Shown one piece after another: positions 13,383 to 30,384 of a DNA stretch of 64,000 nucleotides. The stretch spans positions 169,787 to 233,786 of IMG/VR virus record IMGVR_UViG_3300015214_000024; one strand, given 5' to 3'. The notes beneath the pieces are model-generated. The model did no database searches, was not told the DNA's origin, and was given only the letters and a program-made list of their open reading frames with translations. Source of the stretch: a virus (Duplodnaviria; Heunggongvirae; Uroviricota; Caudoviricetes). Position numbers and translations under genes: made by a program. Numbering within the stretch: position 1 is the stretch's first letter; each line of letters begins with the position of its first letter.

Positions 13383-13476
13383 TATGAGTCAAAACTACTA
13401 AAGACGAATGGTAGAGTCAGCCCGCTCTTATACGGGATAATAGCTGGTTCGATTCCAGTTAGTAGTTTTGGCCATA
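13383..13476 (+). ncRNA. tRNA-like RNA with extended acceptor stem, no CCA
   Basis: D, anticodon and T arms closed by a ~17-bp stem. Confidence 0.6.
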
Positions 13477-13623: not shown

Positions 13624-13713
13624 AGCCAGGCGGCGGGAGTAGAACAGTGGTACTTCACCTCCATCCCAGGAGGAGATTGTAGGTTCGATTCCTACCTTGC
13701 CGCCCGTCCTGGC
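13624..13713 (+). ncRNA. tRNA-like RNA (Gly-like) with extended terminal stem
   Basis: CCUCC/GGAGG arm, GUAGGUUCGAUUCCUAC T-arm. Confidence 0.5.
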
Positions 13714-21707: not shown

Positions 21708-22238
21708 ATGATTGATATTGAACAATATATTCGTTTACCGTTAAATGAGCGCCAAGCACATTTGAAATTGGAAGAAAATTGTATTGTTCGTGGCGGCCCT
21801 AAAGATGGTGGTTTATCATCGTATTGTAAGGGTTTGATGGCTCATATATTGGATACGACAATACCATCTGGTATGAAGATACATATTTGTCACGCTTGCC
21901 ATAATAAACATTGTTCAAATCCAAAACATTTATATTGGGGTACTGCTAAAGAAAATGCTATTGACAACTATAATAACGGTGCTAAAACAGCCCGTGAACG
22001 TACAATAGAAAAATATGGCATTGAAAAGGCAAATGAAATTTTTAAATTAAATTCAACCTTGGCAGCGGCTAAAGGAGGAAGAAAAGGAAAAGGAAAACCA
22101 AAAAGTGATCATCATCGGTTAGCTTTATCAAATGCTGGTAAAGGAACTGTATGGTTTAACAACGGTTTTAAAAATTTAAAAATTAAGATAGGTGGTCAAA
22201 TTCCGGAAGGGTTTGTTCAAGGAATGATTAAAAAATAA
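21708..22238 (+). CDS. HNH homing endonuclease
   Basis: ICHACHNKHCSNPKHLYWGT..EN. Confidence 0.85.
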   Translation: MIDIEQYIRLPLNERQAHLKLEENCIVRGGPKDGGLSSYCKGLMAHILDTTIPSGMKIHICHACHNKHCSNPKHLYWGTAKENAIDNYNNGAKTARERTIEKYGIEKANEIFKLNSTLAAAKGGRKGKGKPKSDHHRLALSNAGKGTVWFNNGFKNLKIKIGGQIPEGFVQGMIKK

Positions 22239-22243
22239 TATAT

Positions 22244-22325
22244 GGGGCTGTGGCTAATGCGAATGGTACAGCTAATAGTTTTAGAAACTATGCTTTTGAG
22301 AGTTCGAGTCTCTCCAGCCCTACCA
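22244..22325 (+). tRNA. tRNA-Leu(UAG), short V-arm
   Basis: AUAGU-UUUAGAA-ACUAU, CCA. Confidence 0.8.
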
Positions 22326-22439: not shown

Positions 22440-22513
22440 GCTCCTGTAGCCCAAATGGAAGAGGCGGCAGTTTCAAACACTGTACAGTGTGAGTTCGAGT
22501 CTCACCAGGAGCA
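22440..22513 (+). tRNA. tRNA-Leu(CAA), short V-arm
   Basis: GCAGU-UUCAAAC-ACUGU. Confidence 0.85.
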
Positions 22514-22517
22514 CAAG

Positions 22518-22623: not shown

Positions 22624-22699
22624 GCGGTTGTGGGCAAAAGGTAAAGTCGGCAAACTTAAAATTTGTGTCATATTGTGGGTTCGAGTCCCACCTACCGCA
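22624..22699 (+). tRNA. tRNA-Leu(UAA), short V-arm
   Basis: GCAAA-CUUAAAA-UUUGU. Confidence 0.8.
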
Positions 22700-22952
22700 C
22701 AAAAAGATGAAAAAGGCGTTGACAACGTTTTAACATCAAGTTAATATGCGAAACAAGAAACGTACTTAACAGTAAGTTTTTCGTTTAGTGGTATTTCTTT
22801 AATAGCCCTAATAGGCTGGGATTACGGAACGCTATGTTGAAGGACATAACTCGGAAATCCCCGTGTGAGGCGGTCATCCAAAGTGGTAGTCGAATTATGG
22901 TTGGAAGAAACGGAATGTAAGGACCACCGAAATGGTGCAAGGCCATTATAAC

Positions 22953-23184: not shown

Positions 23185-23268
23185 GCCCTAGTGGTGAAAT
23201 TGGTAGACACACTAGATTTAGGTTCTAGCGCCAAAAGCGTGGGGGTTCGAGTCCCTCCTAGGGCACCA
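23185..23268 (+). tRNA. tRNA-Leu(UAG)
   Basis: Canonical, CCA. Confidence 0.95.
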
Positions 23269-23938: not shown

Positions 23939-24024
23939 GCGGTTATGGTGGAATGGCAGACACACTATCTTGAGGGGGTAGCGAGAGAAATCTCATAAGG
24001 GTTCAAGTCCCTTTAACCGCACCA
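23939..24024 (+). tRNA. tRNA-Leu(GAG)
   Basis: Loop UUGAGGG, CCA. Confidence 0.9.
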
Positions 24025-24896: not shown

Positions 24897-24973
24897 TCCC
24901 AATGGGCCCTATTGGCAGGGGCACGACGCTGTTAACGTCGACGCTGTAGGTTCGAATCCTACATTGGGAGCCA
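24897..24973 (+). tRNA. tRNA-Asn(GUU)
   Basis: Loop CUGUUAA, GCCA. Confidence 0.9.
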
Positions 24974-24987
24974 ATTTGAGGTATGAT

Positions 24988-25410
24988 ATGAATTACAAAG
25001 GACATAAAGATAAAATTTATATTTGTGAAAATTGTTTTTCTGAAATAGCCTTCAAAGGCTATTCAAACAAGCACCGATTTTGTGATATGAAATGTGCTGG
25101 TGAATTTAAAGTTAAGGAAACTAAAGATAAAAATTTAAAATTATTCCTTCAAGGTAAATTAACGCGCAGGGATAGAATTTATGAAATATTAGTTGAACGC
25201 GATGGTAATTGCTGTTCTGTTTGTAAAATTACCGAATGGAATGGTAAAGAAATTCGTTTATGGGTTGACCATATTGACGGAAATGCTACCAATAATTCAC
25301 CGAATAATTTTAGACTGATTTGTCCAAATTGTGATTCACAAAGTGAAACTTTTGGAGCCAAGAATCGAGGCAATGGAAGAAAATCAAAAGGATTACCGCA
25401 ATATGGGTAA
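24988..25410 (+). CDS. HNH endonuclease
   Basis: CSVC..VDHIDGN..NN...N.RLICPNC. Confidence 0.88.
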   Translation: MNYKGHKDKIYICENCFSEIAFKGYSNKHRFCDMKCAGEFKVKETKDKNLKLFLQGKLTRRDRIYEILVERDGNCCSVCKITEWNGKEIRLWVDHIDGNATNNSPNNFRLICPNCDSQSETFGAKNRGNGRKSKGLPQYG

Positions 25411-26325: not shown

Positions 26326-27591
26326 ATGGCGATGTATGATCAGTATGTATGCGTAATGTTCCCGTATCCTAGTGGCGCTGGCCTGCATTTGGGTCATTAT
26401 TACAACTATGCTGTAATTGACTCATATGCTAGGTGGCAGCGTTTTAAAGGTCAGACGGTTTTTCAACCTTTTGGTTATGATGCTTTTGGCTTGCCTGCAG
26501 AAAACTATGCTCGCCAAATTGGCGGTGATCCTAGAACAATAACTAATCAAAATATTCAAAATTTCCGTAAACAAATGCGAAATATGAATACTTTGTATGA
26601 CGAACAGTTGGTTACTTGTGAAACTGATTACGTTAAGTGGACCCAATGGATCTTTAATGCTTTGAAAGATCGTGGATTAGCATACAAAGCTTGGGGTGAA
26701 GTAAATTGGTGTGAACAGTGCGGGACCGTGTTGGCTAATGAACAAGCGCAAAATGGCATTTGTGAACGCCACGGAACTCCTGTTGAAAAACGTCAAATGA
26801 ATCAGTGGTATTTCAAGATTACTGATTATACTGATCGATTGATTAAGAATTTGGACTGGATTGATTATCCGGAAGGGACTAAGAAGCAACAGCGCAAATG
26901 GTTGGAGGATCAGCAAGATTGGTGTGTCAGTCGTCAGCGTTCTTGGGGCTGTCCTATACCAATTGAAGGTGAAACTGACACCTTGGACACTTTTGTTGAC
27001 TCTTCATTTTATTTCTTGCGCTATTTGACTAAAAGTGAAGATGAGTTTTTGCCAGCTGATCAATACAAGCAAGTCGATCTGTATGTTGGTGGCCCAGAAC
27101 ACGCTTGTATGCATTTGATATATGCTCGTTTTATTCATATGGTTTTGTTTGATATGGGAATTGTTCCTGAAGAAGAGCCATTTAAGAAAGTTATTCATCA
27201 GGGTATGATTACCAAGGATGGGAACAAGATGAGCAAAAGTAAAGGTAATGCCGTTAGTCCTGATGACTATGATCCTGACGAATTGAGAATGTATTTGATG
27301 TTCTTGGGGCCATATTTTGAAGGTGGGGATTGGAGTGACCAGCATATTGTTGGTGTTCGCCGCTTCTTCAATAGGATGAAAACTTGGTTGGGAGAAGCTG
27401 GCACTGAAAATATTGACACTTCTCAGTTGGAAAATCAAATTGATCATTATGTTTCTACTTTCAAATTTAATAAAGTAGTTTCAAGTTTTATGGAATTTAT
27501 GAACAAAAATAAATCCAAAAAAGTTGATAATGAAACTCGAAATAAAATTGTCAGAATGTTGACTAATTTTGCCCCAGGGTTTCGAATTTAA
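26326..27591 (+). CDS. leuS: Minimal leucyl-tRNA synthetase (no CP1 editing or C-terminal domain)
   Basis: MFPYPSG.GLHLGH, DAFGLPAEN, DWCVSRQR.WG, DTFVDSS, KMSKSKGN; only 421 aa. Confidence 0.93.
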   Translation: MAMYDQYVCVMFPYPSGAGLHLGHYYNYAVIDSYARWQRFKGQTVFQPFGYDAFGLPAENYARQIGGDPRTITNQNIQNFRKQMRNMNTLYDEQLVTCETDYVKWTQWIFNALKDRGLAYKAWGEVNWCEQCGTVLANEQAQNGICERHGTPVEKRQMNQWYFKITDYTDRLIKNLDWIDYPEGTKKQQRKWLEDQQDWCVSRQRSWGCPIPIEGETDTLDTFVDSSFYFLRYLTKSEDEFLPADQYKQVDLYVGGPEHACMHLIYARFIHMVLFDMGIVPEEEPFKKVIHQGMITKDGNKMSKSKGNAVSPDDYDPDELRMYLMFLGPYFEGGDWSDQHIVGVRRFFNRMKTWLGEAGTENIDTSQLENQIDHYVSTFKFNKVVSSFMEFMNKNKSKKVDNETRNKIVRMLTNFAPGFRI

Positions 27592-27770
27592 GTAGTTGAC
27601 AGTGAATAGATTGTTTGCTACTATGAATACATAAGCAGTTAAGCAGTTTTGGTCCACGGTGGTTCCAGCAAATGTTGGAGGGTAGATGGTTCGAATCCAT
27701 TTAAGAAAACCTGGGTTAGGTTTAAACCAAAAGAGCGTTCAAATCGCTCCGCCAAAAACCGTTTAATTAT

Positions 27771-28724
27771 TATGCCCACTTGGCGGAATTTGAATATGAT
27801 AAACCTTGAAAATATTGTTGAATCTCTCAAAAGGCAATATCCTGAATATGATTATGAGATATTGAATAATAAGATTGGAATCTGGGATCCTCCTGGAAAC
27901 CATTATAAAGGAAGATACCATATACAAATTGCAGAATGTGAAATAACTGAAGACAAAAATTATGATCATAATTTTTGGATAGATTTTTTAGAAAAATGTA
28001 TCTTTATTCATAGAATGAATAAGTATAATTTTTAATTAAAATTTGCGTCAACTATAAATAAAGCTAAAAGGTAACTTTATGCTTTGTGATTATGGTTGCG
28101 AACAGGAATCAAATTTTGTTCTTAAAAATGGTAAAAATTGTTGCGCAAAGAGTCAAAATTCATGTCCTGCAATAAGGGCTAAGACTGGGGCAACTGTTAA
28201 GCATCAATTTAAATCTGGCAGTAGAAAACGTCAACCATATGTTTATGCTGATTTGCCTGATGAAACAAAAGAGAGAATGAAATGGAACAAAGGAAAAGAA
28301 ATTGTTCCAAACGAAATTGTGTTTGCTGAAAATAGCAAATATGATAATGATGTGGTTAAAAAAAGAATTTTACAAAACAATCTTTTAGATTATAAATGTG
28401 CCGAATGTGAGTTGACAGAATGGCAAGGCAAAAGTATAGTGTTGGAGTTAGAACACTGCAACGGCGTTCGAAACGATCATAGGATTGAAAACTTAAAGTT
28501 TTTGTGTCCAAATTGCCACTCACAAACGGAAACGTTTAGAGGAAGAAACAAAAACACTGGAAAAGTTATTGTTACTGATGAAGAGTTGTTGACAGCGTTA
28601 AAGTCGACTGCTAATATAAGACAAGCTTTACAGAGTGTAGGACTTGCTGCTAAAGGCGGAAATTATGCTCGAGTTAAAGCTTTAAAATTAAAGTTTAATG
28701 TTTAATATGCCCACTTGGCGGAAT
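27771..28724 (+). mobile_element. HNH-carrying insertion bounded by a 19-bp direct repeat of the tRNA-Leu 5' end
   Basis: TATGCCCACTTGGCGGAAT at 27771 and 28706. Confidence 0.65.
28079..28705 (+). CDS. HNH endonuclease
   Basis: CAEC..LELEHCNG..D.R.ENL.FLCPNCH. Confidence 0.88.
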   Translation: MLCDYGCEQESNFVLKNGKNCCAKSQNSCPAIRAKTGATVKHQFKSGSRKRQPYVYADLPDETKERMKWNKGKEIVPNEIVFAENSKYDNDVVKKRILQNNLLDYKCAECELTEWQGKSIVLELEHCNGVRNDHRIENLKFLCPNCHSQTETFRGRNKNTGKVIVTDEELLTALKSTANIRQALQSVGLAAKGGNYARVKALKLKFNV

Positions 28725-29495: not shown

Positions 29496-29582
29496 GCGGG
29501 TATGGCGGAATTGGTAGACGCGACTGACTCAAAATCAGTTTCCCGAAAGGGAGTGGGGGTTCGAGTCCCTCTACCCGCACCA
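29496..29582 (+). tRNA. tRNA-Leu(CAA)
   Basis: Canonical, CCA. Confidence 0.95.
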
Positions 29583-29805: not shown

Positions 29806-30384
29806 ATGAAGAATAATTGGAAAGAAATTCAGGAATATTACGACAAAGGTTTTAGTATTCGAGAATTGGTTGCACATTTTAAAATTTCGACTAAGTCAAT
29901 ACATCTCGCTAAAAAGCGTGGCGAGTTTGTGACCAGATCAAAATCAGAGAGTGCTTTATTAGTAAAGAAAAAATTTGGCCAGAAGGTATTGTCAAAATCC
30001 CATAAAGATAATATATCTAATGGTATGAGGGCGGCCCATAAAAATGGTAATGCTTGGAATATTGGCCAAAGTAGATGGAATAATGAACCAAGTTGGCCAG
30101 AACAATTTTTTATGAATGTGGTCGCAAATGAATTTGACGACAAGAATTATGAATATGAAAAACCATTTCATAAATTTAGTTTAGATTTTGTTTGGGAGCA
30201 TAAAAAGAAAGTAATAGAAATTGATGGTGAACAGCACGATCGCTGCTTTGAGCAACGTAGACGTGATGAGGAAAAAGATTCGTTACTCCATCAATATGGA
30301 TATGAAATTTTACGTATCAGGTGGAAAGATATGTTTAATGATCCAAAAGTTTATATTAAACTTGCAAAAGATTTTATAAACTAA
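29806..30384 (+). CDS. DUF559/Vsr-like endonuclease
   Basis: LDF..VIEIDGEQH..D..D..L...GY.ILR. Confidence 0.82.
   Translation: MKNNWKEIQEYYDKGFSIRELVAHFKISTKSIHLAKKRGEFVTRSKSESALLVKKKFGQKVLSKSHKDNISNGMRAAHKNGNAWNIGQSRWNNEPSWPEQFFMNVVANEFDDKNYEYEKPFHKFSLDFVWEHKKKVIEIDGEQHDRCFEQRRRDEEKDSLLHQYGYEILRIRWKDMFNDPKVYIKLAKDFIN

Follow-up and report, generated by a model that had tools for sequence, protein, structure and literature searches.

A leucyl-tRNA synthetase reduced to its catalytic and helical core is conserved in huge phages and lies beside leucine tRNAs with long and short variable arms

How far can a leucyl-tRNA synthetase (LeuRS) be reduced, and which tRNAs would such an enzyme serve? 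The question is raised by the viral DNA analyzed here, a stretch of 64,000 nucleotides (nt), hereafter the window, which spans bases 169787-233786 of the 455,147-bp virus record IMGVR_UViG_3300015214_000024, rated complete by CheckV. The source virus is a huge phage with 69 tRNA genes in its whole genome, about 10% of them for leucine, and the window contains 56 tRNA genes, among which lies the gene for a LeuRS of 421 amino acids (aa), from here on mini-LeuRS. An earlier note on this DNA had proposed that this stripped-down enzyme and nearby leucine tRNAs (tRNALeu) without the long variable arm form a phage-specific, possibly orthogonal pair. Our analysis supports the reduced enzyme, speaks against the exclusive pair and suggests that mini-LeuRS may instead serve tRNALeu of both arm lengths.

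The product of the 421-aa open reading frame (ORF) is a bacterial-type LeuRS core, with the following landmarks:

26326..27591, + strand: coding sequence of the minimal LeuRS, 421 aa, stop codon included (ORF list, Pfam, TIGR00396 and AlphaFold2 model)
26386..26397, + strand: HLGH, the class I HIGH motif, residues 21-24 (aligns with HMGH 49-52 of Thermus thermophilus LeuRS)
26710..26772, + strand: ZN1 zinc knuckle, C129, C132, C146 and H149 (by alignment, the ZN1 region in solved structures of LeuRS)
26905..26913, + strand: junction, residues 194-196, at the missing CP1 editing domain of about 190 residues (jump from position 224 to 418 in our hidden Markov model and from 221 to 412 in TIGR00396)
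26917..26949, + strand: DWCVSRQRSWG, residues 198-208 (its counterpart holds the tRNA 3' end in Escherichia coli LeuRS)
27211..27240, + strand: TKDG at the site of the leucine-specific domain, N300, then KMSKS, residues 296-305 (aligns with GKDG-Q-KMSKS of Mycoplasma mobile LeuRS)
27337..27588, + strand: helical anticodon-binding-type domain of four helices (338-356, 366-377, 381-395 and 402-412 in the model), with the end FAPGFRI

Pfam searches matched the protein with tRNA-synt_1 and tRNA-synt_1g, and the best NCBIfam model was leuS_bact (TIGR00396; 396.5 bits, E 2.5e-118; next best model, 140). This score lies under the TIGR00396 cut-off of 548.4 bits because just part of the 843 model positions is matched (25-221, 412-428, 484-569 and 604-749). 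A full-length LeuRS hidden Markov model (HMM) of 804 positions, which we built from 36 relatives of 790-900 aa, was likewise matched in three blocks (35-224, 418-434 and 489-710). The AlphaFold model, calculated with 36 homologues as input, reached a pLDDT of 91.4 and a pTM of 0.90, and about 420 of its residues superposed on residues 27-790 of T. thermophilus LeuRS (Z 37.6 (VIA), rmsd, the root mean square deviation, 2.2 Å). Comparable superpositions were obtained on residues 31-551 of M. mobile LeuRS (Z 36.7, rmsd 1.9 Å, TMq 0.90) and 27-772 of E. coli LeuRS (Z about 34), with rmsd values of 1.9-2.3 Å over the three structures.

The residues expected of a working active site are strictly kept among these 36 homologues. 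H21, G23 and H24 of the HLGH motif are invariant, as are G299, K301, M302 and K304 in and just before KMSKS (residues 301-305); the earlier note had also read both signature motifs. The same holds for the leucine-pocket residues M11-F12-P13-Y14, D52, E258-H259 and H263, which align with M40-Y43, D80, E540-H541 and H545 of T. thermophilus LeuRS, and for C129, C132 and C146 of ZN1, with Cys as the family consensus at the position of H149. In the tRNA 3'-end motif D198-R205, W207 and G208 are invariant; the E. coli counterpart of R203, R424, touches C74 of the tRNA (PMC6614811).

The same comparisons define what the protein lacks. Mini-LeuRS had no match past position 710 of the 804 in the full-length HMM, and its model stops at the equivalent of residue 790 of 878 in T. 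thermophilus LeuRS and 772 of 860 in E. coli LeuRS. The partial HMM matches and the limits of the superpositions therefore establish that CP1 and the C-terminal tRNA-binding domain (CTD) are absent, as the earlier note had stated, and the losses extend further: the leucine-specific domain (LSD), too, is missing, with TKDG (296-299) in its place, together with an insert of about 50 residues that follows CP1. At the C-terminus the last 88 or so residues are gone, which removes the tail of the helical domain along with the linker and the CTD. PF13603, the CP1 editing family, had no match in mini-LeuRS or anywhere in the 455-kb genome, and neither did TIGR00396 positions 750-843 anywhere in that genome.

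We considered a split gene with the C-terminus encoded in trans and rejected it, since whole-genome searches with TIGR00396, PF08264, PF13603 and PF01588 turned up neither a tRNA_bind domain nor a further piece of LeuRS. Their sole other match was to an unrelated class I synthetase, 869 aa long and of the Ile/Val type, encoded outside the window (G000:C1:295200-297400, - strand). This enzyme retains Anticodon_1, and truncation is thus not common to all synthetases of the source phage. A conserved partner gene was rejected as well: when the ORFs lying within 4 kb of the LeuRS gene were clustered over 56-57 loci, no family occurred in more than 9 loci.

These searches bear directly on the idea that mini-LeuRS charges tRNA only with help, either from a phage or host partner protein that provides elbow binding in trans or as an oligomer. 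The idea draws on the essential role of the CTD in the bacterial LeuRS enzymes studied (PMC3561953) and on the split LeuRS known in Aquifex (PMC2377443). However, the 455-kb genome showed no LeuRS C-terminal piece, extra Anticodon_1 copy or tRNA_bind domain elsewhere, and no protein neighbor is kept in more than 9 of 56 loci, so we regard dependence on a helper as quite unlikely.

Is the reduced protein an isolated accident? When the homologue search was confined to a protein length of 231-737 aa, clusters of 412-443 aa with 65-92% identity numbered more than 120, on contigs of up to 614 kb, and because so many clusters of similar length occur on such contigs, mini-LeuRS represents a conserved huge-phage family. 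We collected 64 viral loci with a homologue. The published phage LR745206 (634.8 kb) carries a 421-aa copy with 62% identity, and phage LR756501 (735 kb) encodes a CTD-less LeuRS of about 503-520 aa. An APGF motif forms the common C-terminal end of all homologues, those of these two phages included, and the invariant columns of the family cover the catalytic motifs, the leucine pocket and the tRNA 3'-end motif. The estimated dN/dS was about 0.1 overall, against about 0.3 for the C-terminal helices; dS was saturated, and these values are therefore to be read only as well below 1. In LR756501 (L351, 8620-11510) the gene lies immediately downstream of five Leu tRNAs, three with long arms and two with 4-nt variable loops. 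One homologue of 541 aa (P0062) matches a reverse transcriptase (PF00078) in addition to the LeuRS core, which may reflect a group II intron or a fusion.

This conservation brings close to refutation the notion that the gene is a decaying, functionless fragment. A score under the TIGR00396 cut-off and the homing endonuclease genes close by could suggest decay, but more than 120 clusters share the length and the end point, the reading frame is uninterrupted, dN/dS lies well under 1 and the fold is predicted with confidence.

The order of the losses can be read from a quick maximum-likelihood tree, in which the 420-aa forms group in one clade (SH-aLRT 100) with a 429-aa form and with one of 530 aa that lacks the CTD but retains a remnant of CP1. 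The sister of this clade (support 96) comprises the full-length LeuRS of a bacterial metagenome-assembled genome and two CP1-less forms with a CTD. This placement indicates that the CTD was lost once in the mini-LeuRS lineage, ahead of the full loss of CP1; across the LeuRS tree CP1 loss is dispersed.

Mini-LeuRS could also be a non-charging paralogue, comparable to Sulfolobaceae LeuRS-I or halobacterial LeuRS2, that forms Leu-AMP or binds tRNALeu and acts outside translation, for instance as a regulator or a decoy. Paralogues of LeuRS in which CP1 and the C-terminus are damaged behave in this way, binding tRNA and forming the adenylate without aminoacylation (PMC9437257), and mini-LeuRS has lost CTD, CP1 and LSD all together. 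Against this stand the invariance of the 3'-end-binding motif and KMSKS and the activity of M. mobile LeuRS, which has neither CP1 nor LSD (PMC3643597). Retention of DWxVSRQRxWG suggests a need for charging, because an enzyme that made only the adenylate would not need a 3'-end motif. Huge phages also carry many other translation genes, for which translation is the plain reading. We consider a non-charging role unlikely.

We next examined the tRNAs that such an enzyme could charge. The window contains the following leucine or putative leucine tRNA genes, scored with the Rfam tRNA model and with a covariance model (R1) made from short-arm Leu tRNAs:

22244..22325, + strand: atypical tRNA, Ile(AAU) by ARAGORN and Leu(UAG) by covariance alignment, CCA encoded (Rfam 40.4 bits, R1 47.6 bits)
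22440..22514, + strand: tRNA-Leu(CAA), 5-nt variable loop, Leu-type 17-nt D-arm, A73, no encoded CCA (ARAGORN; Rfam tRNA 55.4 bits, R1 83.7 bits)
22624..22700, + strand: tRNA-Leu(UAA), unpaired 8-nt variable region (intermediate), A73 (ARAGORN; Rfam 53.3 bits, R1 55.2 bits)
23185..23268, + strand: tRNA-Leu(UAG), long variable region of 12 nt (ARAGORN, Rfam tRNA)
23939..24024, + strand: tRNA-Leu(GAG), long variable arm of 15 nt with a 4-bp stem (ARAGORN, Rfam tRNA)
29496..29582, + strand: tRNA-Leu(CAA), long variable arm of 15 nt, E. coli-like D-arm (ARAGORN, Rfam tRNA)

A type I tRNALeu is defined by a Leu anticodon and a stemless variable loop of 4-5 nt, and of the three short-arm genes that the earlier note had listed, the one at 22440 is of this type, the one at 22624 is intermediate and the one at 22244 is ambiguous. 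The first two have a D-stem of 3 bp, and the one at 22440 conforms to the identity set of bacterial tRNALeu (A73, A14, A15-U48, G18G19, 17-nt D-arm, 3-bp stem). The covariance alignment of 22244 gives a perfect 5-bp anticodon stem, the loop UUUAGAA, a 6-nt variable loop and a 5-nt D-loop insertion; its scores are low with both models and we therefore regard this tRNA as atypical. The long-arm genes at 23185, 23939 and 29496, which belong to the same block, had been left out of the earlier note, and a fourth long-arm Leu tRNA lies elsewhere in the genome. CCA is encoded in the long-arm Leu tRNAs and in 22244, and not in the clear short-arm genes 22440 and 22624.

If short-arm tRNALeu were the private substrates of mini-LeuRS, the two should travel together. 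A pattern scan of IMG/VR, in which a Leu anticodon was combined with a Leu-type D-loop and a variable loop of 4-6 nt, matched at least 119 viral stretches. All 80 loci inspected from these (80/80) held a genuine tRNA-Leu, its variable loop 5-7 nt long, nearly always 5-6, and 77 of the 80 combined the 17-nt D-arm with A73. A LeuRS of any kind was found in none of 50 records with such a tRNA, and in none of the 19 among them that were at least 90% complete. The cultured Acinetobacter phage vB_AbaM_phiAbaA1 and Lactobacillus phage Bacchae also carry annotated short tRNA-Leu genes and no LeuRS. Short-arm tRNALeu is thus a general phage trait, and its presence in phages without a LeuRS implies that host enzymes must charge such tRNAs.

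These genes are widespread in ordinary-size phage contigs lacking a LeuRS (viral loci L078-L157; phage records KJ628499, 11022-11099, and MG765277, 134782-134856), and most phage loci are homogeneous, with Leu tRNAs that are all short or all long. Among named phages, a blastn search with one short tRNA gave no match, and phage T5, considered as a further case, was discarded on finding that its tRNALeu is long-armed.

The same pattern occurs in bacterial genomes, mostly as single genes in Actinomycetota and in some cases within tRNA arrays. Of the bacterial pattern loci (L230-L309), 60/80 had no more than 2 tRNA genes and were mostly from Actinomycetota, and 15/80 lay inside dense arrays (5-34 tRNAs per 8 kb) in Acidobacteriota, cyanobacteria, Myxococcota and others. 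The bacterial-genome matches agree with what is known from Streptomyces coelicolor, which has a type I tRNALeu(CAA) (PMC6614811).

Short-arm phage tRNALeu also keep the bacterial tRNALeu identity set, as shown by an alignment of 87 of them in which A14, A15, G18 and A73 are invariant and U48 is present in at least 90%. With the covariance model made from short-arm tRNAs, the long-arm Leu tRNAs of the source phage rank right after its short one and above all its other tRNAs. Separating short from long tRNALeu by covariance score alone failed because the long-arm Leu tRNAs score next best, and match length and ARAGORN on the fetched loci were used instead.

Viewed from the side of the enzyme, the association is looser than an exclusive pair and still present. 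Long-arm tRNALeu always stood beside mini-LeuRS where Leu tRNAs were seen. In two complete genomes with mini-LeuRS, G054 (500 kb) and G056 (482 kb), the best-scoring model hits fetched included long-arm Leu tRNAs only, a survey that weak, atypical short forms may have escaped. Of the tRNAs that lie within 2.5 kb of a mini-LeuRS gene 46% are for leucine, and within 10 kb the share is 28%, compared with about 10% in the whole genome of the source phage. Where such loci hold at least 2 Leu tRNAs, the set is mixed, long and short, in 9/12, long-only in 3/12 and short-only in 0/12, whereas two general phage samples with at least 2 Leu tRNAs gave 12/60 mixed, 26 short-only and 22 long-only sets. Mixed sets are therefore enriched beside mini-LeuRS (Fisher odds ratio 12, p 4e-4, uncorrected for relatedness and for the larger tRNA sets of huge phages), and this weaker link is what remains of the association.

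These results allow us to weigh the orthogonal pair, in which mini-LeuRS would be specialized for short-arm tRNALeu that the host LeuRS cannot charge. In its favor, the S. coelicolor type I tRNALeu(CAA) failed as a substrate of E. coli LeuRS (PMC6614811), the mini-LeuRS gene has short-arm Leu tRNAs no more than 4 kb away, both here and in the 9 of 12 related loci mentioned above, and the enrichment of mixed sets points the same way. However, short-arm tRNALeu with the same D-arm and A73 are found in the 119 or more viral contigs, in the two cultured phages without a LeuRS and in bacterial chromosomes (PMC6614811), they retain the bacterial identity elements A73, A14 and A15-U48 and the G18G19 register, and the absence of a LeuRS extends to all 50 records, near-complete ones included. 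Exclusivity is further contradicted by the long-arm tRNALeu beside mini-LeuRS, by the long-arm hits alone in G054 and G056 and by the absence of any short-only mini-LeuRS locus. The claim of a phage-specific orthogonal pair does not hold up against this evidence, and we judge it very unlikely.

The explanation that we favor, on which our judgment is about evenly poised, is that mini-LeuRS represents a minimal, editing-free LeuRS for both classes of tRNALeu, one to which the variable arm makes no difference. According to this proposal the phage enzyme would be active though stripped down to the Rossmann catalytic core, ZN1, the KMSKS loop and the four-helix anticodon-binding-type domain. It would activate leucine and transfer it to tRNALeu without proofreading, with recognition limited to the acceptor end and to the Leu-type core of the tRNA. 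It would thereby charge the long-arm and short-arm tRNALeu that huge phages carry together, and may supplement or replace the host LeuRS in infection.

Several properties of known enzymes make this plausible. LeuRS still charges tRNA after CP1 deletion and M. mobile lives without CP1 and LSD, and a GKDG sequence can functionally replace the LSD and suffices for charging in M. mobile LeuRS (PMC3643597). The LSD favors large variable loops (PMC3643597), and the CTD contacts the tRNA elbow and the variable-arm nucleotides 47f-47i (PMC6614811); mini-LeuRS has lost the two modules with which bacterial LeuRS touches or senses the variable arm and should therefore be indifferent to arm length. Leu sets that are mixed or long-only and never short-only are consistent with such indifference.

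Other observations weigh against an active enzyme of this kind. Deletion of the CTD abolishes aminoacylation by E. coli and T. thermophilus LeuRS (PMC3561953), and the LeuRS-I of Sulfolobaceae makes Leu-AMP and binds tRNA and cannot charge it (PMC9437257). Nothing was found to take the place of the CTD, with no CTD-like or tRNA_bind domain in the 455-kb genome and no conserved neighboring protein seen beside mini-LeuRS. The A73-reading arginines are not kept either, R416 and R418 of E. coli LeuRS being D195 and Q197 in mini-LeuRS, although all the Leu tRNAs have A73. A conserved family without the CTD is the surprising part of these results. A bolder version, in which a fully active, CTD-free and arm-blind LeuRS would let huge phages run the two tRNALeu classes side by side and would keep leucylation open even if host LeuRS or host type II tRNALeu were shut down or attacked, strikes us as possible, though rather less than probable; such an enzyme might have a kinetic preference toward the phage's own tRNAs. 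Most phages do not run two structural tRNALeu classes side by side.

The surroundings of the gene provide some further observations. HNH-type homing-endonuclease ORFs are scattered among the tRNA genes of the window; ORFs resembling HNH or His-Me finger endonucleases and one resembling a DUF559/MTES_1575 nuclease lie at 21708-22238, 24964-25410, 28079-28705 and 29806-30384. Nuclease ORFs are arranged among tRNA genes in the same manner in the tRNA region of T5. ARAGORN also called two tRNA-like genes with anticodons of 4 nt (CTTA, 13393-13468) and 2 nt (CC, 13631-13705). AAAGGA stands 4 nt ahead of the LeuRS ATG, and a promoter scan gave no more matches than chance, the TTGACA-17-TATTAG sequence upstream of the gene lying below the criterion of the scan. 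Directly past the LeuRS stop, within 27596-27710, is a good sigma-70-like site, TTGACA-17-TACTAT (with TG), followed on its 3' side by a T-arm-like stretch, GGTTCGAATCC, which had no tRNA call and no Rfam match and may be a tRNA remnant. The ORF directly downstream of the LeuRS gene (27649-28035) matched no Pfam family.

Among characterized enzymes the closest is M. mobile LeuRS (PDB 3ZIU, 637 aa), the best PDB sequence match of mini-LeuRS (E 1.7e-89), which shares the bacterial-type core, the absence of CP1 and an xKDG sequence in place of the LSD before KMSKS. This enzyme has been called a minimal LeuRS (PMC3643597) but keeps the CTD, a linker nonapeptide at the CP1 site and an insert of about 43 residues after it, all missing from mini-LeuRS, which stops at the equivalent of its residue 551 and is 216 residues shorter. 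With its confident LeuRS-core fold and its conservation across more than 120 clusters, mini-LeuRS bears out the suggestion of a naturally near-minimal synthetase. The engineered CTD deletions of E. coli and T. thermophilus LeuRS lack the same part and lose aminoacylation (PMC3561953), whereas mini-LeuRS represents a conserved natural family. Sulfolobaceae LeuRS-I and halobacterial LeuRS2 also have damaged editing and C-terminal parts; these are archaeal-type, full-length proteins, accompanied by a normal LeuRS, and their charging is absent or weak (PMC9437257). In architecture the protein resembles the minimal monomeric MetRS of Aquifex aeolicus (PDB 2CSX, 497 aa; E 6.9e-27), with a Rossmann fold, zinc knuckle, KMSKS and helical domain, but MetRS reads the anticodon and the mini-LeuRS sequence is clearly that of a LeuRS (TIGR00396, 396 bits; metG, 135 bits).

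The tRNAs have known counterparts in the type I tRNALeu of S. coelicolor and animal mitochondria, which likewise combine a Leu anticodon with a 4-6-nt variable loop, and S. coelicolor holds type I and type II tRNALeu in one compartment (PMC6614811). There, and in mitochondria, type I tRNALeu is charged by a full-length LeuRS with LSD and CTD, the LSD being the module required. The phage short-arm tRNAs have a 17-nt Leu-type D-arm and A73, whereas A73 does not serve as an identity element in S. coelicolor. Mini-LeuRS is thus a LeuRS reduced beyond the M. mobile enzyme, accompanied by a tRNA type already known from Streptomyces and mitochondria. Our literature search, incomplete in coverage, found no paper on a CTD-less phage LeuRS or on short-arm tRNALeu in phages.

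If active, mini-LeuRS would be shorter than any other natural LeuRS, by a margin of over 200 residues, and the CTD, essential in every bacterial LeuRS tested, would be dispensable. Such activity would bear on tRNA recognition by class Ia synthetases, on how few parts leucylation requires and on efforts to design compact synthetases. The tRNA side has its own consequence, since type I tRNALeu are common in ordinary-size phages without a LeuRS and yet rare in bacteria according to the literature searched: either these tRNAs are charged by the ordinary LeuRS of the host, or what they do has to be reconsidered.

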